Positions 53,566 through 64,000 of a stretch of DNA of 64,000 nucleotides are shown here, piece after piece. Source of the DNA: an uncultured Clostridium sp. (GTDB lineage Bacteria; Bacillota; Clostridia; Lachnospirales; Lachnospiraceae); contig UQMJ01000011.1 in the NCBI GenBank assembly GCA_900542035.1, positions 4,993 through 68,992 of the forward strand, written 5' to 3'. The translations under genes were made by a program, and so were the position numbers. Within the stretch, counting starts at the first letter, position 1; each line of letters begins with the position of its first letter. The notes beneath the pieces were generated by a model. It did no database searches, was not told where the DNA came from, and saw only the letters and a program-made list of their open reading frames with translations.

Positions 53566-55650
53566 ATGGATTACCGCGAATTATGGAAAGAAGAAAATGA
53601 GTCTGTATTAGAACGATATGAACTGTCATTGGAGAGAATCCGCCAGATAAAAGACGAACAGGCGGTAACAGAACCGTTCAGAGACTATTTTGCAGGCGTT
53701 TCCGGATTTATCAGCCGGATTGGGGACCTGGCAGAAAAGCTGAACCGGAACGGAGTCAGCAAGTATATTCATTCATTCAGCCTGGAGGAACTGGCAGAAG
53801 AAAATAAGTCTTTCTATGCAGATATTTTACCGGATCATTACGAAGAAAGCTACGCCAATCCTGCTTATGCGGTAAAGAAGCTAGGCGAAGAGTATGGCCC
53901 GCTTCTGGCGTTTTTATATACAGAAATCAGAGGGCAGATCGTATATGCGTTTGAGAGCCGTCTGTGGAACATTACCGTCTTAAACGAGACGTTTATTGAA
54001 ATTTACAATTTATTTGAAGAAGGGATTCCGAAAGCCCAGGAAGTAAAAGACGTGCTGTATTGGTTTGTCAGCGATTATGCGGATCAGACTGTGTCCTACC
54101 GCACCAGGGAATCCCTGGATCCTTCTTTATCCTTTGCGGCAGATATTATTACAGGCGAAGACCTTTTCGATCTCAGGTATCTGTATCAGTTCGGCGAGTA
54201 TATTTCCGATACCGAACTTCAGATAGCCGGATTTTTAAACAGCCTTCCTCAGGAAACCATTGATAAAATGGCCGATACTTATACAGAAGGGTTTTCTAAA
54301 GGCTTTGAGGTAATGGGAAGAGATCTTTCCATTAAGAAAACCGTATCCATCCGCTATGAACTGGGATTTGAGCGGATGTTAAAAAAGGCCATTTCCAATT
54401 TTAAAGAGATGGGAAAAGACGTAATCATCCTGCGGGCCGCAGTAGAGTCCATTAACCGCAATCCCAACCGGAAACTGGGATTTTACGGGACTTCTCCCAA
54501 TAAGCAGTATGAGTATGACCACCGCTATGACAGCGCCATTTATATGGGGACTGCGTTAAAAGAGCGGAAGCTTTCGGTCATCAAGAGCGCCCTGGAAGAG
54601 TATAAGGATCTGGCCAGATTAAATGCAGGTCCGGCTGTGGTGGAGACCTTTGGAGAAGCGGGATTTACGCCAATTAACAAAAAAGAGGCGCTTTTGCTGA
54701 GCCGCCACCAGGAAGAGGTAAACATTACCTACTCCAACGAATATATGCAGATTCTGGATCAGTATCAGCCTGGCGAAGAAACCAGCTTTACCATTATTGC
54801 ATTTCCAAAGCCGGAGATTGGAAACCAGTTTCCGGAGATTTTCCAGGAAATCATTAAAATCAACACCCTGGACTATGAACTGTACCGAGATATGCAGCAG
54901 GTAATTATCGACGCCTTAGATAAGGCAGAATATGTGACGGTAAAGGGAAGGGGAAACAACCGGACGGATATTCGGGTGCATCTTCATACCCTGACGGATC
55001 CGGCTTCCCAGACCAATTTTGAAAACTGCGTAGCAGACGTAAACATTCCAGTCGGTGAAGTCTTTACCTCCCCGCTGCTTTCCGGCACAGATGGGGAGCT
55101 GTTTGTGGAAAACGTATACATCGGAGACATCCAGTTTAAAAATTTATCGGTTCAGTTTGAAAACGGACGGGTAACCGGCTATATGTGCGATAATTTTGCA
55201 GATCCGGAGGAAAATAAAGCCCTGATAAAGCAGGTCATTATGAGAAACCATGACAATCTGCCTCTGGGCGAATTTGCCATCGGAACCAATACCACCGCCT
55301 ATGCAATGGCAGAAAAATACGGAATCATTGACAAGCTTCCGATTCTGATTGTAGAAAAAATGGGGCCTCATTTTGCAGTTGGGGATACCTGCTACAGCTG
55401 GTCCGAAGATGCGCCTATGTACAATCCAGATGGAAAAGAAGTCATTGCCAGGGACAATGAAGTATCTATTTTAAGAAAAACCGACGTTTCCCAGGCGTAC
55501 TTTAACTGCCACTGCGATATTACCATTCCCTATGACGAGCTGGGAGAGATTGCGGCCATCGGACCAGACGGAACCAAAACCGTAATTATTAAAAACGGAC
55601 GTTTTGCCCTGGCAGGAGCAGAAAAATTAAATGAACCATTGGAAGCTTAA
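53566..55650 (+). CDS. M29-type aminopeptidase domain protein with long N-terminal extension
   Basis: C-terminal half carries ADVNIPVGEVFTSP, LGEFAIGTN and GPHFAVGD, which resemble AmpS/PepS (M29) motifs. The first ~300 aa are unassigned. Confidence 0.6.
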   Translation: MDYRELWKEENESVLERYELSLERIRQIKDEQAVTEPFRDYFAGVSGFISRIGDLAEKLNRNGVSKYIHSFSLEELAEENKSFYADILPDHYEESYANPAYAVKKLGEEYGPLLAFLYTEIRGQIVYAFESRLWNITVLNETFIEIYNLFEEGIPKAQEVKDVLYWFVSDYADQTVSYRTRESLDPSLSFAADIITGEDLFDLRYLYQFGEYISDTELQIAGFLNSLPQETIDKMADTYTEGFSKGFEVMGRDLSIKKTVSIRYELGFERMLKKAISNFKEMGKDVIILRAAVESINRNPNRKLGFYGTSPNKQYEYDHRYDSAIYMGTALKERKLSVIKSALEEYKDLARLNAGPAVVETFGEAGFTPINKKEALLLSRHQEEVNITYSNEYMQILDQYQPGEETSFTIIAFPKPEIGNQFPEIFQEIIKINTLDYELYRDMQQVIIDALDKAEYVTVKGRGNNRTDIRVHLHTLTDPASQTNFENCVADVNIPVGEVFTSPLLSGTDGELFVENVYIGDIQFKNLSVQFENGRVTGYMCDNFADPEENKALIKQVIMRNHDNLPLGEFAIGTNTTAYAMAEKYGIIDKLPILIVEKMGPHFAVGDTCYSWSEDAPMYNPDGKEVIARDNEVSILRKTDVSQAYFNCHCDITIPYDELGEIAAIGPDGTKTVIIKNGRFALAGAEKLNEPLEA

Positions 55651-55658
55651 AAATCCTA

Positions 55659-55690
55659 TTGACGGCAGATTTAAAACCTAGTATTATAAT
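55659..55690 (+). promoter_or_regulatory. sigma-A promoter of the pur operon
   Basis: TTGACG, a 17-nt spacer, then TATTATAAT. Confidence 0.6.
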
Positions 55691-55797
55691 TAATAAGTGA
55701 TATTTAATTCATAAAACATACTTATAAGAAGAACTTATTAAAAACATTCATGGAAATTATGAATCCAGGTCAAGCACCAGAAAAAGGAGGAGCACAC

Positions 55798-56316
55798 ATG
55801 GCAAAAGTTGGAATTGTAATGGGAAGTGACTCAGATATGCCGGTTATGGCAAAAGCGGCAGAGGTATTAGAAGAGTTGGGCGTAGAGTTTGAAATGACGA
55901 TTATTTCTGCCCACAGAGAGCCGGACGTATTTTTTGAATATGCAAAATCAGCAGAGAGCAAAGGCTTTCAGGTTATTATTGCAGGAGCAGGAAAGGCAGC
56001 CCATCTTCCAGGTATGTGCGCCGCTATTTTCCCTATGCCGGTAATTGGAATCCCGATGAAGACTTCTGATCTGGGCGGCGTAGATTCTTTATATTCCATC
56101 GTTCAGATGCCGTCTGGCATTCCGGTGGCAACCGTCGCAATCAATGGCGGCGCCAATGCCGGTATTCTGGCAGCAAAGATTCTGGCAACTTCCGACGCAG
56201 CGCTGCTTGGCAGACTGAAAGAGTATTCTGCAAAGTTAAAAAGCGATGTAGAAAAGAAGGCGGAAAAACTGGATGAAATCGGATATAAAGAGTATCTGGC
56301 ACAGATGAAGAAGTAA
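55798..56316 (+). CDS. purE: 5-(carboxyamino)imidazole ribonucleotide mutase
   Basis: VGIVMGSDSDMPVM...SAHR...AGKAAHLPG. RBS AAAGGAGG. Confidence 0.95.
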   Translation: MAKVGIVMGSDSDMPVMAKAAEVLEELGVEFEMTIISAHREPDVFFEYAKSAESKGFQVIIAGAGKAAHLPGMCAAIFPMPVIGIPMKTSDLGGVDSLYSIVQMPSGIPVATVAINGGANAGILAAKILATSDAALLGRLKEYSAKLKSDVEKKAEKLDEIGYKEYLAQMKK

Positions 56317-56372
56317 TAAAGTAATGAAAACAGAACCGTCAATCGTATCAGGAATTTACAATGGAGGAAGTT

Positions 56373-57404
56373 ATGGATTACAAGAAATCTGGAGTTGATA
56401 TTGAGGCAGGATACAAATCAGTAGAATTAATGAAAAAATTTGTTCAGGGAACCATGCGTCCAGAAGTATTAGGCGGACTGGGCGGATTTTCCGGCGCGTT
56501 TTCTTTAAATTCTTTTAAAGATATGGAAGAGCCGACCTTATTATCCGGAACAGACGGCGTGGGAACCAAATTAAAACTGGCTTTTCTTATGGATAAGCAT
56601 GATACTGTCGGAATCGACTGCGTGGCAATGTGCGTCAACGATGTAGCCTGCGCAGGCGGTGAGCCGTTATTCTTCCTGGACTATATTGCCTGCGGCAAAA
56701 ATTATCCGGAAAAAATTGCAACCATCGTAAGCGGCGTAGCGGACGGATGCAAGCAGTCAGGAGCGGCGTTAATCGGCGGCGAGACTGCAGAAATGCCTGG
56801 CTTCTATCCGGAAGACGAGTACGATCTGGCTGGATTTGCAGTGGGAATTGTCGATAAGAAAGACTTAATTACCGGCGAAAACCTGGCTGCCGGAGACGTT
56901 CTCATCGGTATGGCATCTACCGGCGTCCACAGCAACGGCTTTTCATTAGTCCGTAAAGTATTTGAAAAGGAACTGACGAAAGAGGGATTAAATACTTACT
57001 ATGACGAGCTTGGCAAAACCCTTGGCGAAGCTCTGATTGCTCCGACCCGTATCTATGTAAAAGCTCTGAAACACGTAAAAGAAGCAGGCGTAAAGGTAAA
57101 GGCCTGCAGCCACATTACCGGCGGCGGTTTCTATGAGAACGTTCCCCGTATGTTAAAAGACGGCACCAGAGCGGTAATCAAGAAAGACAGCTATCCAGTT
57201 CCTCCTATCTTTAAGATGCTGGCAGAAAAAGGCCAGATTGAAGAGCAGATGATGTACAACACCTATAACATGGGCATCGGCATGATTGTAGCGGTTGATC
57301 CAGCAGATGTGGAGACCGCTATGGAAGCCATGAGAAAAGCCGGAGATACTCCTTATGTAATCGGTTCTATTGAGGCAGGAGAAAAGGGAGTGACATTATG
57401 CTGA
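56373..57404 (+). CDS. purM: phosphoribosylformylglycinamidine cyclo-ligase (AIR synthetase)
   Basis: [12 protein letters not shown]...GTDGVGTKL...[10 protein letters not shown]. Confidence 0.95.
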
Positions 57405-57985
57405 AAATCGGCGTAATGGTGTCCGGAGGCGGCACCAACCTTCAGGCGATTATAGACGCCATTGAAACCGGAAAAATTACCAATACCGAAATTCGGGTTG
57501 TGCTCAGCAACAATCAGAACGCTTACGCATTAGAGCGGGCGAGAAAGGCCGGAATCGAGGCAGTATGCCTGTCTCCAAAAGATTTTCCGGACAGAGGGGC
57601 GTTTAATGAGGCTTTTCTGGAAAAAGTAGAGGAATACGACCTGGATCTGATTGTCCTGGCAGGATTTCTGGTAACTATTCCGGCCGCTATGATTGAAAAA
57701 TACCGCAGCCGGATTATCAACATCCATCCGTCCCTGATTCCATCTTTCTGCGGAGTGGGGTATTACGGATTAAAGGTTCACGAAGCAGCTTTAAAGCGCG
57801 GGGTAAAGGTAACCGGCGCAACGGTTCACTATGTCGATGAAGGCGTGGATTCCGGCCCTATTATCCTTCAGAAAGCAGTAGAGGTCAAAGAAGGAGATAC
57901 TCCTGAGATCCTGCAGCGTCGGGTCATGGAAGAAGCAGAGTGGATCATTCTGCCCCAGGCTATCAACATGATTGCCAATCAGTAA
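57398..57985 (+). CDS. purN: phosphoribosylglycinamide formyltransferase
   Basis: [13 protein letters not shown]...NIHPSLIP...[17 protein letters not shown]. Confidence 0.95.
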
Positions 57986-58008
57986 ACAGTCCATAAGGAG
58001 AGTTCATT

Positions 58009-59292
58009 ATGAAGGTATTAATCGTAGGAAGCGGCGGACGGGAACACGCCATTGCATGGAAAGTAGCCCAGAGTCCGAAGGTAGATAAAATTTATTGCGC
58101 TCCTGGAAATGCCGGCATTGCAGAATTTGCCGAATGCGTGTCCATTGGCGCTATGGAGTTTGAAAAGCTGGCAGCCTTTGCCAAAGAAAAAGAAATCGAC
58201 CTGACGGTTATCGGGATGGACGATCCGTTGGTTGGCGGCATTGTAGACGTATTTGAAGCAGAGGGCTTAAGAGTGTTCGGCCCGAGAAAAAATGCGGCGA
58301 TTCTGGAAGGCTCCAAGGCGTTTTCTAAGGATTTAATGAAAAAGTACAACATTCCCACAGCAGCATACGAGACGTTTAACAGTCCAGAAGACGCTCTTGC
58401 ATACCTGGAAACTGCCGATATGCCAATCGTGTTAAAGGCAGACGGCCTGGCGCTTGGAAAAGGCGTGCTAATCTGCAATACCAGAGAAGAGGCAAAAGAG
58501 GGCGTTAAAACCTTAATGTTAGATAAGCAGTTTGGATCTGCAGGCGACCGGATTGTGGTAGAAGAGTTTATGACTGGCCGCGAGGTGTCCGTTCTGTCTT
58601 TTGTAGACGGAACTACCATCAAAATTATGACTTCTGCCCAGGATCATAAGAGAGCGGGAGACGGAGATACCGGATTAAATACAGGCGGTATGGGAACCTT
58701 CTCTCCAAGCCCCTTCTATACAGCAGAAATCGACGCATTCTGCAAAGAACACATTTACCAGAAGACCGTAGATGCCATGAAGGCAGAAGGAAGAACCTTT
58801 CAGGGAATTATTTTCTTTGGCCTGATGCTGACGGAAAAAGGCCCGAAGGTTCTGGAATACAATGCCAGATTTGGCGATCCGGAGACCCAGGTAGTTCTTC
58901 CGCGCATGAAAAACGATATTGTGGAAGTCTTTGAAGCCTGTGTAGACGGCACGCTTGATCAGATTGACCTGGAATTTGAAGACAATGCGGCAGTCTGCGT
59001 GGTGCTGGCTTCTGAGGGGTATCCGGTAAAATATGAAAAGGGCTTTGAAGTAAAAGGCCTGGAAACCTTCAAAGAGAAAGACGGCTACTATGTGTTCCAT
59101 GCAGGAACCAGATTTGACGAAAACGGCCGTCTGGTAACAAACGGCGGCAGAGTGTTAGGCGTTACCGCCACTGGCAGAGACTTAAAAGAAGCCAGAAAAA
59201 ATGCCTATGAAGCAACCAACTGGATTGATTTTTCCAATAAGTATATGCGCCATGACATCGGCAAGGCCATCGATGCGGTTGGAGAAAAGTAG
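58009..59292 (+). CDS. purD: phosphoribosylamine-glycine ligase
   Basis: MKVLIVGSGGREHAIAWK...ATP-grasp...FNARFGDPE. Confidence 0.95.
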   Translation: MKVLIVGSGGREHAIAWKVAQSPKVDKIYCAPGNAGIAEFAECVSIGAMEFEKLAAFAKEKEIDLTVIGMDDPLVGGIVDVFEAEGLRVFGPRKNAAILEGSKAFSKDLMKKYNIPTAAYETFNSPEDALAYLETADMPIVLKADGLALGKGVLICNTREEAKEGVKTLMLDKQFGSAGDRIVVEEFMTGREVSVLSFVDGTTIKIMTSAQDHKRAGDGDTGLNTGGMGTFSPSPFYTAEIDAFCKEHIYQKTVDAMKAEGRTFQGIIFFGLMLTEKGPKVLEYNARFGDPETQVVLPRMKNDIVEVFEACVDGTLDQIDLEFEDNAAVCVVLASEGYPVKYEKGFEVKGLETFKEKDGYYVFHAGTRFDENGRLVTNGGRVLGVTATGRDLKEARKNAYEATNWIDFSNKYMRHDIGKAIDAVGEK

Positions 59293-59305
59293 GAGTTGGT
59301 GTTCG

Positions 59306-59950
59306 GTCCTATTTCAATCGGAAACAGGGATATTTTTCGGAAACAGAAAATTTGAAAAAAGGCAGTTTTAAGGAAACTTTTCCTATTTCAATCGGAAACA
59401 ATGCAGCGAAAAACTCAGGGCCGTAATTCCCATTATATCGGAAATAAAGAGCAAAAACACATATGTCATAACAAATCGGAAAAGACCATGGACAGTCGGA
59501 AAACCCTGACTGGCTGTGGTCTTTCTCTTTTCTACAGCAAAAAAATATATTGTGCCGCAGCAGGTACGAAAAATGGGAAAAGTGTTTTTAGACAGCCGCT
59601 TGTTTCTTTTCTAATAGGAAAAGTCGAAAATTCAGAAAACGCCTGTTTCCTTTTGAAATGGAAATGCGATTTTTTCAAAAAATGCGTCTTATTTCCGTTT
59701 GAAATGGGAAAAGGACGAAAATTGGCATTTTTGAAAAATTTCCCATTGTATCAGAAACAAGGGTGTAAAATTTCGAAATATTTTCCTATTGCAATGGAAA
59801 CAGGAGGCCGAAATCGAAAAAACTCAATTCCCATTATACCGGAAACAAAAGGGTAAAATTGCGATTTTCGGATTCCTATTGTATCGGAAACAGGGAGTGC
59901 TTTTGCAATCATATAGTCGTTTTCGAAAAATAAAAAATTTTCAACTTTTG
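59306..59950. repeat. array of at least 10 degenerate tandem repeats (unit about 44-47 bp, core TTCC-N9-10-GGAAAC)
   Basis: Unit starts read by eye at 59306, 59380, 59427, 59608, 59646, 59692, 59739, 59783, 59828 and 59873. An example unit is ttcccattataccggaaacaaaagggtaaaattgcgattttcgga. Confidence 0.8.
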
Positions 59951-60327
59951 AAAGCGGAAGTATCTAAAAGAACAATTTATAAGGAAAATAGAAGACCATG
60001 CGGAAAACATTATGAAGGATGGCATTTTGACGGATTTACGGAAGAAGAGATCCGAAAGACAGTCATGCCCATGGGCGAGTTGACGGATGCAATAAAAAGA
60101 AGTTAATATAGCCTGAAAGGCAGCTGGAGAGATGCAAGAACTTTACCACTGCAGGCATTCGGATGCTGATGTATCGGAACTGGTACAAAGCCAGTACGAA
60201 TGTTTCGTAAAATTTGTTACAGGGGAAAATAAGTGCAGATGTTGAAACAGTTTAATTCTTTTTTGCACCTGTCGGTTGCATGACTTTTATCCTGCTTATT
60301 GATAAAATAGAGGTACTTGAAAGGAGC

Positions 60328-60432
60328 ATGATGAGTATAAATACCAAGAAAACTTTGTCAATTGGAATTTCCGACTTTTTCCTATTAAAATTGAAAACAA
60401 CAGATTTAACCAAAAAACTGATTACTGATTGA
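60328..60432 (+). pseudogene. 34-codon remnant resembling the N-terminus of PF09820-type predicted AAA-ATPases
   Basis: MMSINTKKTLSIGISDFFLLKLK... resembles the KKLPIGISDF start of that family from memory. It is truncated by a stop at 60430. Confidence 0.3.
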
Positions 60433-60510
60433 ACTACAGGTTCATGGACGCCATGGGATGAATGGTGTATGATTAAAAGCATAAGGCACGAAAAAAGGAG
60501 GTAGGAAGTC

Positions 60511-61020
60511 ATGAAATATACATCGGCAGAAGCTGCAAAGCTGCTTCGAAAACTGAACGAAGAAGTGGAAAACCTGGAAGCACAGGAGGCGAAACGCCGT
60601 GAATTTAATGCTGCAATCGGCGAGGATATCGAAACGGTACGGCCCGCATACGATTATGCAGATACTCAGAGAAAGCTGAAAGATCTGGAGAAAAAAATCC
60701 GCATGGTTAAGCATACGCTGAATTGTTTCAACTCCACTACGGAAGTACCAGGATTCGGCATGACCATTGATCAGCTTTTGGTTTATATTCCGCAGCTGAG
60801 TAGGAGAAAACAAAAACTGGCTATGATGAGTAGTTGCCTCCCAAAAGAACGGGCAAACGTATCTGGATTTGGAAGCCAGATTATCGACTACCGGTATGCC
60901 AATTATGATATTGAAGCTGTAAAAGCTGATTATCAAAGCGTATCCGACGAGCTGGCAAAGGCTCAAACAGCGCTGGATCTGGTAAATACAACAATGGAAA
61001 TGGAAATCGAGATCGATTGA
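60511..61020 (+). CDS. hypothetical coiled-coil protein
   Basis: Strong RBS AAAAAGGAGG. 169 aa with heptad-like charged N- and C-termini. Confidence 0.65.
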   Translation: MKYTSAEAAKLLRKLNEEVENLEAQEAKRREFNAAIGEDIETVRPAYDYADTQRKLKDLEKKIRMVKHTLNCFNSTTEVPGFGMTIDQLLVYIPQLSRRKQKLAMMSSCLPKERANVSGFGSQIIDYRYANYDIEAVKADYQSVSDELAKAQTALDLVNTTMEMEIEID

Positions 61021-61251
61021 TCTTTTTCCAGACGGGCGGAACTACTTATTGATGAAAGTAGTTAAGGTTTAATGTGAAAGTTTTCCGTTATTTTTCTTTG
61101 TTATCCTGTATTGGTTAAGGTTCAGAGTTTTGGATTGTAAAAGATATTTTAGCGAAAATTTCATTTTTCCGTCCGCGAAAGCTATTATCTGGAACTTATG
61201 GGTTCCGGACGGCGGCAATGGCATGGTTTCAGGCCGCATTTGAGGAGAAAT

Positions 61252-61572
61252 ATGGAGTATCAGAATTATGTTAGACTTCGCAGTTGGGTTCCGTGGAGAA
61301 GAACCTATTTTATTGTGGACACAGAAGACTATCTGGCAGACCAGCTTTTCATAGAAAAGAAAATACCCGTTTATTTTGGACGGGAATTCGTAAAAAAGGA
61401 TTCACCTTATGTGGTAATCGAAGTGAAACTTCGAAGGAAACAAGAAGCAGCCTTTTTGGAAGCGATGGAAAAACTGAAAAGAAAGATGCTGTTAATGGGA
61501 CATACCGATTATCCAGAACTCTGCATGAAAATTATGAGCTTGCAGGACAAGTTGGTTAATGTGAAAATGTAA
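61252..61572 (+). CDS. hypothetical small protein
   Basis: RBS GAGGAG then ATG at 61252. 106 aa, no recognised motif. Confidence 0.5.
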   Translation: MEYQNYVRLRSWVPWRRTYFIVDTEDYLADQLFIEKKIPVYFGREFVKKDSPYVVIEVKLRRKQEAAFLEAMEKLKRKMLLMGHTDYPELCMKIMSLQDKLVNVKM

Positions 61573-61664
61573 GAAATTTGTCCTTAGCATTTTCCGAAAT
61601 ACTGTGCTACAATACGGATATGTATAGTTGGATGGGAATCTTTTAGCTTTGAAAGGAGACCTAT

Positions 61665-61949
61665 ATGAGAGAAACAGTCTGTGTTGCGATCAAACAAAAG
61701 GAAACAGGAGAAAAGATTCGGAAGCTGATGGGGGAACATGGTTATTCCGTCAGGGACATCCAAGAGCTGATGGGATTTGAAAGTCCACGGGCAGTCTACA
61801 AATGGCTTGCCGGAGACAGCCTTCCCACTGTGGACAATCTTTTAATTCTGAGTCGGATCCTGCATACAAATATGGAAAAAATCCTCGTCTATGACGGGGA
61901 TTTTCCTATATATAGGCTTAGGAAAGAGCAGCTTGAGAAAATAGCTTGA
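61665..61949 (+). CDS. XRE-family helix-turn-helix transcriptional regulator
   Basis: GEKIRKLMGEHGYSVRDIQELMGFESPRAVYKWLAGDSLPTVDNLLILSRIL is an HTH_3 pattern. RBS AAAGGAG. Confidence 0.8.
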   Translation: MRETVCVAIKQKETGEKIRKLMGEHGYSVRDIQELMGFESPRAVYKWLAGDSLPTVDNLLILSRILHTNMEKILVYDGDFPIYRLRKEQLEKIA

Positions 61950-62732
61950 ACCGCTCACGCCTGACTGGAATCAGATGGGGATTATTCTATTTGGGGTAAT
62001 GAATCTGGAAAAGATAAAAGAAAATTACAGTAGCTTTTGCGGATTACCAGATTTGTAGCCAGGATGAATTGCGCCATTCGTGGCGGGAGCATCCCGCATT
62101 TTCCAGTGCAGCTTTAACAGTTTCTGCATAGTTTACAGTTTGCTCCTCAAAGATATGGATTGAGCCTACATGTCATTGATTCAGATTTTTTCTAACTCCA
62201 TCCTTACATCTTCAGAAATAGTTTCGCCTATTTCTAAATGAGCTGAACAACGATTGAGCGAATCCAATATTTCATTTTTTGTGACATGATTTCTGAATAC
62301 TCGCGGTCATCACTATGCAAGCAGCCATTACAAAGAGCTATTCAAATTTAAAGGGAGGCCTTGCCAACGTCGTAGCGTTGAGCTGCCTCCCTTAATGACT
62401 GATTTTTCCGTTGTCTGCCAACCGTCCGGCCCATTGTCCGACACCGTCTTTCGGATTTTGCGTGTCAGCCACACGAGCGGAATGTCCTCCACTTTCCTTC
62501 CCTTATTATATGAAAAATCCTTGAAAAATACAAGATGGAAAATTTCCGCCTTTATTTCCAAACTTTTCAATTAGGCTTGTTTCAAAAACGGAATAAGCCT
62601 ATTTTTCTGCATATAGGTATATAATAGTGAAATTTATTTTTAAAATTTCATGAAGTATATTTTCAAAGGAATTGCGTCATGATAAACTCAAAATAACCAA
62701 GATGTAGTTTTATGTTACGAGGTGGTTTAATT

Positions 62733-64000
62733 ATGAAAAAATACATATTCATCATTTTATCAACTATGTGCATGTTATTATTCATAGGATGTGGACATAA
62801 AGAAAAATATGAAATTGGGATTTTAGTACCAGCTGGCAGTACAGAAGCATTTGTGTACTCAGATGAGGAAATCCGCCCAACTGGAAACAAAATTACCATA
62901 TGGTCTGGTGCTGGTTTAGGAGATACAGAAGTTATATTAAAACCAGTTAATGAAAATGTGGAAACTGGTTATGCAGCAACCTATTTAACGCATAGTATGC
63001 CAGTTGAATTTGATACACATAATGTAAAAGACGAGTGGTTTGTGATTGGTGTATCAGAACAAAATGACTCTGACAGGTTTCCGATTGCAGTATCAGTTGA
63101 AGTAGAAGGTGTTGAAGTTAGAACTGCAGATAAAGCAGAAGTAACATTCCAAGCAACCATTCTTGAAATTAAAGATACCTGCTATTTAGTAGAGCCAGTT
63201 GAAGGTAGTCAAGAATTAAAAAGTGCAGATAAAATCACTGTTCCAATAAAGAAGCTTGATCAATCTTTAGAACCAGAAGTTGGAGATGTTATTGAAATCA
63301 AATATAACGGTAAAATTGCTGAAAGTTATCCAGCCCAGATAACAGAAGTTTATGATATCAAAGTTATGAAAGAAGCAGAGAAATGGGATTTAATTCCAAT
63401 GGTTATGGTAAACGGCGAATTATATCTGGATACAGGTCATGAAAGTTCAGTGGAAGCTCGTTGTGAAATGATGGATGGAGAGATTACATCATCAGTAGAT
63501 GGAAGTGAACAGCCAACTGAAAATGATCAATCCAACTTTGGTACAGGTTTTGGATATCAATATGGTTCACAAGAAGGTCTAATTGAGATTTTTATGAATG
63601 ACAAATGGTGGGGATTTGCAACTGAAAAAGTTTTAGCTAGTAGTCAAATGATAATAGAGCCAGAAACAACCGATGAAATCATTACATACAACGGAAAAGA
63701 ATATAAAAAATCCGAATTGTGTAATGCTACATTAAAATGGTTAGAATTATCCAAAGAAGAAAAGATGTTATCATCCTATTTCCCACCAGAATTTGTGATA
63801 ATTGATGAAAACTGGGGCATCACTTTAACGGCAGAAAACATTACTCCAACGGGGGCAACAATCAAATGTACGCAATCAAGCGGAAAACCTACAGGAGAAT
63901 TACAAACAGGCAGCGGGTATATTGTAGAAAATTGGACGCAGGAAAATGGCTGGAAAGAAATGCCATATGTGATAGACGGTGAAATAGGCTGGACAGCTGA
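62733..64000 (+). CDS. lipoprotein of unknown function (5' partial view; the ORF runs off the window end)
   Basis: RBS GAGGTGG then ATG at 62733. MKKYIFIILSTMCMLLFIGCG lipobox. The frame stays open for 422 codons to position 64000. It is absent from the ORF track because no stop lies in the window. Confidence 0.75.
   Translation, partial: MKKYIFIILSTMCMLLFIGCGHKEKYEIGILVPAGSTEAFVYSDEEIRPTGNKITIWSGAGLGDTEVILKPVNENVETGYAATYLTHSMPVEFDTHNVKDEWFVIGVSEQNDSDRFPIAVSVEVEGVEVRTADKAEVTFQATILEIKDTCYLVEPVEGSQELKSADKITVPIKKLDQSLEPEVGDVIEIKYNGKIAESYPAQITEVYDIKVMKEAEKWDLIPMVMVNGELYLDTGHESSVEARCEMMDGEITSSVDGSEQPTENDQSNFGTGFGYQYGSQEGLIEIFMNDKWWGFATEKVLASSQMIIEPETTDEIITYNGKEYKKSELCNATLKWLELSKEEKMLSSYFPPEFVIIDENWGITLTAENITPTGATIKCTQSSGKPTGELQTGSGYIVENWTQENGWKEMPYVIDGEIGWTA

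Follow-up and report, generated by a model that had tools for sequence, protein, structure and literature searches.

What is the series of short, dyad-bearing repeats that takes over where the pur operon ends in an uncultured Clostridium sp. of the Lachnospiraceae, and at what level, protein, RNA or DNA, would it act? The repeats follow the stop codon of purD, the last gene of the operon, in the 64,000 nucleotides (nt) of contig UQMJ01000011.1 that were analyzed here (the window, to which coordinates refer unless another contig is named). They form a real array that is non-coding and confined to a single locus in this genome, and comparison between lineages points to its horizontal exchange together with the adjoining genomic island. 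As to function, we tentatively read the array, with somewhat less than even confidence, as a platform of multiple sites, located at an island hotspot, to which a DNA-binding or recombination protein would attach.

The array begins 14 nt past the purD stop and holds ten full dyad units within positions 59306-59891, each with one TTCC-N9/10-GGAA dyad in a core of 19-20 base pairs (bp). The unit motif is TTCCYATT(N)NNANNGGAAAC, which can also be written TTCCYATT-N2-3-A-NN-GGAAAC, and TTCCCATTGTATCGGAAACAGGG is an example of a unit. Units measure 43-47 bp, and their ~25-bp spacers are mutually related; outside the core whole units are ~60-70% alike, with the words AAAATTTCGAAA and AGG(G) in common between spacers. 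An earlier interpretation, made from the letters of this DNA and called the sequence-only reading below, had described a tandem array of dyad repeats directly after purD. Pattern search and a unit hidden Markov model (HMM) both bear out the repeats and dyads at that place, as ten full units. The periodicity also holds, with units spaced 43-49 bp from start to start within a block, but a simple head-to-tail arrangement does not, because three units are inverted and the array straddles the purD terminator. The order of units is + + + / purD terminator hairpin / - - - / + + + +, and successive starts lie 74, 47, 175 (over the terminator), 43, 46, 49, 43, 45 and 45 bp apart.

With up to two mismatches allowed, the motif pattern matched 13 times in the window against 0.43 matches expected, and none of 100 shuffled sequences (0/100) got to 13. 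The unit HMM gave exactly 10 matches at E <= 0.005 in the 2.74-Mb assembly, all of them in the array, and the next best match had E = 0.32. Whether the repeats belong to a dispersed family had been asked before; with nothing beyond the array at E <= 0.005 in the genome, the answer is a single locus. Motif counts in 11 relatives from the genus were at the control level, and we saw no dispersal in either the genome or the genus. Tandem Repeats Finder, taken down to a score of 30, reported nothing at the array, which it misses because the units diverge outside the 19-20-bp core. As a formal check of the repeats proposed earlier the outcome is therefore divided, negative by that program and positive by the pattern search and the HMM.

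Two open reading frames (ORFs) run through the repeats, at 59401-59856 and 59789-60106, and a similar frame is open past the terminator in lineage L135, which would fit a small repeat protein encoded by the region. Neither ORF has a Pfam match, however, and in Clostridium sp. AT4 the orthologous array interrupts the frame. Successive units fall in different reading frames because their lengths are 43, 46 and 47 nt, the ORF crosses the terminator hairpin, and whole units are deleted in lineages L130, L131 and L152. We give a protein product a practically negligible probability, in agreement with the sequence-only reading, which had taken these ORFs for mere translations of the repeats.

Public genomes and metagenomes were scanned with a two-unit pattern and with a 27-mer, which brought up further carriers. 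The ten-unit architecture, with order and orientation kept, follows purD in AT4 (L126/L158), L162, L157 and L159a. Shortened arrays were present in L131/L154 (six units), L152/L160/L150/L153 (four to five units) and L130 (three units), and G277 has units 1-3 and remnants. A near-identical array stands after purD in at least six lineages, in which pairwise identity is 87-95% for the array versus 73-83% at the nucleotide level for purD, and the full ten-unit order is kept in at least five lineages that have diverged by 5-13%. The window purD is only 73-75% identical to that of the array-sharing lineages, and 93-96% identical to that of its genus relatives G004 and G006. These two relatives (purD 94% in G004 and 96% in G006) each carry just one TTCCCATTGTATCGGAAAC, 74-77% alike, placed after the purD stop and before the same terminator; what the nearest relatives have in common with the window is only unit 3, the terminator and the block that follows it. 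One degenerate unit was seen in G002, half a unit in G010 and, in C. fessum, one unit fused to that species' own terminator. Since the genus normally has one unit and the window has ten, the window genome carries an AT4-type module. The post-array genes of AT4 (macro-domain, flavin reductase and a 169-amino-acid coiled-coil protein) are likewise 86-92% identical among lineages, so that high identity is a property of the whole block and not of the array alone. This pattern of sharing is discordant with the species tree, and it is on this discordance of identities that we base the exchange of array and island together.

In a 400-genus scan a coding motif of a membrane protein accounted for most matches, and G277 was alone in having a true array. 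BLASTN searches in distant mode gave no match among PLSDB plasmids or INPHARED phages, a viral contig scan was empty, and the literature on a purD attB site and on Clostridium sp. AT4 yielded nothing relevant. On metagenome contig ERZ779820.1483 (L159), two diverged purD genes (79% and 75% identical to that of the window) face each other, each with an array; this contig is probably a chimeric assembly joined in the common island.

Six full-length orthologous arrays were compared column by column to assess constraint. Variable columns made up 11 of 150 motif-specified positions (7%), 9 of 44 N positions in the cores (20%) and 73 of 330 spacer positions (22%); Fisher tests gave p = 0.0006 when cores were compared with spacers and p = 0.02 when specified positions were compared with N positions. 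Because each unit keeps its own N bases unchanged across lineages, the low variation at motif positions does not come from ongoing homogenization or gene conversion. The reversed units are constrained too, although they would be present as the complement in an RNA, which favors recognition of double-stranded DNA. Only 4 of the 330 spacer columns contained gaps; units 4-10 had none, although A/T runs are frequent. In L050 we found an independent five-unit array with the core TTTCTATTnnAnnGGAAA, a 45-bp period and unrelated spacers. The motif constraint, the kept spacing and the L050 array together argue that motif and spacing both matter, being under selective constraint.

Copy number is polymorphic. 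It ranges from 3 to 10 overall, and within one species (purD 98-100% identical) contigs carry 10, 5 or 4 units with different right junctions. The shortened arrays are fusions with junctions inside cores, joining units 1/3 (L152, L130), 7/9 (L131) and 8/10 (L130).

The outer borders of the module are sharp. The left edge of unit 1, (T)GTTAATTCCCATT, is where the lineages become homologous, and leftward of it the 15-30 nt after each purD stop are not alignable between lineages. At least five different left flanks occur, among them lineage-specific post-purD sequence, an insert of 230 unrelated bases between purD and unit 1 (G277) and a DUF4046-like gene (G042, C. porci). On the other side, two right flanks diverge immediately past the AGGG of unit 10. 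Beyond lies an island of variable content. In the window it comprises gene fragments, an XRE gene and a lipoprotein gene; in AT4 (L163) it holds macro-domain, flavin reductase and coiled-coil genes, an IS3 element, two ~500-amino-acid proteins without assignment and a class 2 DISARM system (DrmMII, DrmE, DrmA and DrmB); in L131 it includes an Abi_2 gene. The synteny comparison across lineages upholds the earlier suggestion that the pur operon ends, and variable accessory DNA begins, at the array.

Units were also found on conjugative elements. On contig C36 of G042, a ten-unit array follows a gene for a 235-amino-acid DUF4046-like protein, and this gene ends a block with a RecD2-like helicase, unassigned small proteins and a RusA-like protein; the same contig also has PrgI, a VirB4/TraG-like ATPase and a DnaG-type primase. 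The homologous block in C. porci (72% nucleotide identity; protein 91%) ends with one unit-1-like copy, GTCAATCCCCATTTCAATCGGAAACAGTAGATTTG, and lies on a 240-kb contig with conjugation genes over more than 80 kb. In G042, DNA homologous to that of C. porci resumes on the far side of the array, so that the unit or array is internal to the element and not its end. Three direct and one inverted unit-like copies (TTCCTTTTATATCGGAAAT and similar) occupy the same position in L216/L217, where the protein is 54% identical. In seven other modules of this homologous group no clear unit was seen. AlphaFold gave a confident all-alpha model for the DUF4046-like protein, with no fold match in the PDB and no functional clue, and a 201-214-amino-acid protein in the element module had no Pfam or PHROG match. 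A link to mobile elements had been proposed from the repeats themselves, in the form of a decayed element. The discordant identity and the units on conjugative elements support the link, but an array whose units are all retained in at least five lineages is not a decayed relic.

Two further points concern these elements. The C. porci contig (C56, L173) carries three mini-arrays of clustered regularly interspaced short palindromic repeats (CRISPR) with a common leader at ~7.5-19.4 kb, and one of these leaders starts directly after the single unit. An integrase of an integrative and conjugative element (ICE) that targets the unit was considered as well and is unsupported, as the C. porci contig has no tyrosine or serine recombinase and the G042 array has element-like DNA on both sides.

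We favor a recombination platform in view of four features, namely sharp borders, occurrence on elements, variable islands and in-core junctions. The array would be a horizontally exchanged non-coding cis-element, most likely acting at the DNA level, which presents ten dyad sites at a set spacing of 43-47 bp and in both orientations around the purD terminator. These sites would be bound by a sequence-specific, probably dimeric, protein that the host or a mobile element supplies in trans. They could then act in recombination or landing, so that island DNA passes between conjugative elements and chromosomes, with copy number altered by unequal recombination within cores. Placement at the border of purD and island, together with the units on conjugative elements, suggests a role in recombination or landing rather than in regulation, partition or replication. 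A more specific version makes each unit the site of a trans-supplied site-specific recombination system and the array a 'landing pad' that nucleates the post-purD defense-island hotspot, an integron-type platform without a cis integrase; a related idea is a chromosomal decoy that excludes elements. We consider this version rather unlikely.

Several observations weigh against a platform of this kind. No candidate binding protein or recombinase gene adjoins any chromosomal array, the XRE gene of the window is not conserved beside other arrays, and the 240-kb C. porci contig gave no match to a tyrosine or large serine recombinase. Most of the homologous element modules (L211-L215 and L218-L220) are without a unit, and the DUF4046-like gene is absent from the genomes with chromosomal arrays. 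There is no other strong site in the genome, so that no regulon can be inferred. No second unit was found at the far end of the island, although the contig ends 1.7 kb past the window and the far end may lie beyond it. Among ~20 assemblies no inversion or excision variants were seen, and the only flip was that of the terminator hairpin in G010. Recombination between repeats and homology-driven exchange could be enough to produce both the borders and the changes in copy number, with no dedicated protein needed.

One rival is an essentially neutral minisatellite without a function of its own, in which an old motif that lay between the stop codon of purD and the terminator was amplified by slippage, unequal crossing-over and one inversion and then hitch-hiked with the island. 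Such an origin would fit the single unit that G004, G006, G002 and C. fessum have at this position, a copy number of 3-10 with junctions in the repeated cores, neighbor genes as conserved as the array and the failure to find a partner protein. It sits poorly with motif-specified bases that vary three times less than N bases and spacers, with units 4-10 that have no indels despite their A/T runs, and with a ten-unit order maintained across at least five lineages at 5-13% divergence. Nor would it readily explain why core and period recur in L050 between unrelated spacers, or why unit-like copies recur after the same gene on diverged conjugative elements. We hold the minisatellite to be unlikely. 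An RNA role appears improbable. Units 1-3 would then be hairpins of the purD 3' untranslated region (UTR), acting as a stabilizer, a processing site or a sponge for protein or small RNA, and the later units would belong to a long hairpin RNA. Units 1-3 do lie between stop codon and terminator, every unit is able to form a stem (UUCC/GGAA), and L162 has in its unit 4 a single substitution, possibly compensatory, that re-establishes pairing (TTCT facing AGAA). The stems are, however, merely 4-5 bp long with loops of 9-10 nt, the part in the 3' UTR before the terminator folds no better than shuffles (z = -1.2), and no Rfam covariance model matched either strand of 55000-64000 up to E = 1. Past the terminator the sequence does fold much more stably than shuffled controls (z = -4.3 for the + strand, -4.9 for the - strand), but a low folding energy is expected simply from oppositely oriented repeats, since the reversed units 4-6 pair with the forward units 7-10. 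Seven units lie past the strong terminator, the conserved positions take in loop and flanking bases (ATT, A, AC), and the reversed units are as constrained as the others although they are the complement in RNA. The sequence-only reading had offered both an array of protein-binding sites and a multi-hairpin RNA; the motif constraint and the use of both orientations favor the former, whereas the labels it attached to that idea (iterons, arm-type sites, partition-like sites) each miss a defining feature.

Partition and replication sites deserve a closer comparison, as the array could have been captured from a conjugative plasmid or ICE, where it would have been a centromere-like or iteron-like site, and survive as a relic or as a decoy that titrates a partition or replication protein. 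The sopC site of F consists of 43-bp units in tandem, and SopB binds the short inverted repeat in each. The present array resembles it in its ~43-47-bp tandem units with one short dyad each, in its about ten copies and in a copy number that varies while the basic architecture is kept. On conjugative elements, moreover, the units end a maintenance-type module with helicase and RusA-like genes, and the chromosomal array heads islands with defense genes. The units of sopC are near-identical, all direct and beside sopAB; here they are divergent, three or four are inverted, par genes are missing and the array straddles a chromosomal terminator. Like plasmid iterons, the units are ~20-bp repeated sites with conserved cores and a link to mobile elements; unlike iterons, which are direct, phased at ~22 bp and beside rep, they recur every 43-49 bp in mixed orientation, out of helical phase. 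Beside the units, neither ParA/ParB nor Rep families were detected, the 201-214-amino-acid neighbor on the elements giving no Pfam match; Rep families were absent among the neighboring ORFs of the window, AT4 and the element contexts, and none of the chromosomal copies of the array has a rep, par or integrase gene next to it. C. porci has just one unit, and most related elements have none. A captured site is accordingly quite improbable in our view. A further candidate is the remnant of a type III toxin-antitoxin antitoxin (ToxI/CptI-like RNA repeats with a terminator). A type III family is known in Lachnospiraceae, ToxN-like genes are present in this genome and its relatives, and the three direct ~45-nt units that precede the terminator recall ToxI/CptI repeats, which are tandem ~36-45-nt units followed by an intrinsic terminator. 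Yet no toxin ORF follows the terminator in any lineage, and the units are degenerate (60-70% alike) and partly inverted. ToxN-family (PF13958) genes lie at G000:C3:154022-154189 (cut by the contig end), G044:C53 and G045:C6, and the genuine loci of G044 and G045 have 2.1 near-identical 40-nt repeats of unrelated sequence and a terminator directly upstream of toxN. With real ToxN loci using other repeats and no toxin gene at the array, a type III antitoxin is effectively refuted, and we find it hardly credible.

Other repeat families can be set against the array in the same way. It shares with REP/BIME elements (REPINs) short imperfect palindromes after stop codons, in both orientations, with set linkers and partly in a 3' UTR. 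Those elements have tens to hundreds of dispersed copies and long G+C-rich stems, in contrast to one locus per genome and A/T-rich arms of 4-5 bp here; a dispersed REP-like family was rejected because all 10 significant HMM matches are at one locus and the relatives are at control level. Another comparison is with the pdif modules of Acinetobacter plasmids, the sfx sites of the R64 shufflon and the att sites at 3' ends of housekeeping genes, which are likewise ~19-28-bp sites in both orientations that bound exchangeable DNA, lie where a conserved gene meets variable DNA and are common to plasmids and chromosomes. Unlike them, the present array has no recombinase that we could find, no 11-6-11 Xer architecture, gene-free segments of ~25 bp and no inversion variants. 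For an att or arm-type site in particular, the junction location agrees, but an integrase at one end with a core repeat at the other was not found, there being no integrase downstream in the window. A CRISPR array, with near-identical direct repeats of 23-55 bp and unique spacers, was rejected in view of cores of 19-20 bp, whole units that are 60-70% alike, related ~25-bp spacers, three inverted units and the negative Tandem Repeats Finder run. A dif/Xer site was also rejected. The dif consensus, which we take to be 11-6-11 bp with a XerD arm like TTATGTAAAT, resembles the unit only in its left arm, the unit is 5-6 bp too short and the 11-6-11 architecture is missing. A Firmicutes dif pattern located a likely chromosomal dif site, TAGTTTCCATAATATTTTTATGTAAATT, elsewhere, at G000:C16:12661 on the minus strand. 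Resemblance to a PurR or cre operator was dropped, as the pur promoter has no similar motif. Each named family (iteron, centromere, att/arm, dif, REP/BIME, ToxI and CRISPR) therefore fails at least one defining feature, and because of this, and because no binding protein or recombinase was found, we keep the platform for a DNA-binding or recombination protein as our main explanation at a level that stops short of even.

The features of the locus are collected below. The purD terminator between units 3 and 4 is conserved in the genus.

Table 1. Features of the purD-island border in the window, with coordinates, strand and the basis on which each was assigned.
Feature	Coordinates	Strand	Basis
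purD (phosphoribosylamine-glycine ligase), last pur-operon gene; stop TAG 59290-59292	58009..59292	+	ORF list
Unit 1, GTCCTATTTCAATCGGAAAC, N10 type; left edge is the sharp homology border of the common module	59306..59325	+	unit HMM
Half unit TTTTTCGGAAACAG, duplicated right half of unit 1	59331..59346	+	sequence reading; absent at C. porci single unit
Unit 2, TTCCTATTTCAATCGGAAAC	59380..59399	+	unit HMM
Unit 3, TTCCCATTATATCGGAAAT; orthologous to the single unit of close relatives	59427..59445	+	pattern match, comparison
purD intrinsic terminator: 17-bp arms 59481-59497 / 59508-59524, loop GGAAAACCCT, T-rich tract	59481..59533	+	inverted repeat, fold
Reversed partial unit, reverse complement CTTTTCCCATTTTTCGTACC, within ~55-bp conserved block past the terminator	59563..59582	-	
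Unit 4, reversed, TTCCTATTAGAAAAGAAAC	59602..59620	-	pattern match, unit HMM
Unit 5, reversed, TTTCCATTTCAAAAGGAAAC	59645..59664	-	pattern match, unit HMM
Unit 6, reversed, TTCCCATTTCAAACGGAAAT	59691..59710	-	unit HMM
Unit 7, TTCCCATTGTATCAGAAAC	59740..59758	+	pattern match, unit HMM
Unit 8, TTCCTATTGCAATGGAAAC	59783..59801	+	pattern match, unit HMM
Unit 9, TTCCCATTATACCGGAAAC	59828..59846	+	pattern match, unit HMM
Unit 10, TTCCTATTGTATCGGAAAC; two alternative right flanks split just past AGGG	59873..59891	+	pattern match, lineage alignment
A/T-rich module tail with TTTTCGAAAA-like palindromes; common to AT4, L162, L157 and L159a	59892..59975	+	comparison
Lineage-specific stretch filled with gene fragments, between module and coiled-coil gene	59976..60510	.	
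Gene for 169-amino-acid coiled-coil protein; with array in window, AT4, L157, L162 and G277; 86% nucleotide identity to AT4	60511..61020	+	

The coiled-coil protein encoded at the end of this stretch was rejected as a partner of the array, since it belongs to a family of more than 1,300 proteins whose genes lie in unrelated contexts that have no arrays. These relatives, at 60-65% identity, occur in many Lachnospiraceae, for example beside response-regulator and LytTR genes. In G010 (L008) the purD terminator hairpin is flipped relative to window 59481-59524 and to AT4, with arms and loop reverse-complemented, a small inversion for which the arms of the hairpin themselves provided the repeats. 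Comparable repeats were seen in two metagenome-assembled genomes (MAGs) from other groups. A Flavobacteriales MAG has an intergenic 42-bp array with 15 copies of GACTTTCCTACTCATCAGGAAACCTTCAAACATTCTGTTTCA beside a gene for a 1063-amino-acid PLD/helicase-type protein (L134:626-1190), and a Tannerella MAG has an intergenic 42-bp array with five copies of GACTTTCCTAAACAATAGGAAACCTTCCTGCAAGTTGCAGGA and a similar dyad (L127:2788-3000). The two may belong to a wider class of TTTCC-N9-GGAAAC repeat arrays.

If the units are protein-recognized recombination or maintenance sites, the post-purD position would be a defined hotspot in abundant human-gut Lachnospiraceae, at which defense genes (DISARM, Abi, CRISPR-bearing element DNA) and other cargo would pass between conjugative elements and chromosomes. 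It would also be a case of a non-coding repeat module that is ~90% identical across genera beside a housekeeping gene diverged to ~75%. Clostridium sp. AT4 is a cultured carrier of the full array, which makes the system accessible at the bench. Even if the array is merely a hitch-hiking minisatellite, it would still be a useful marker of horizontal exchange at purD.

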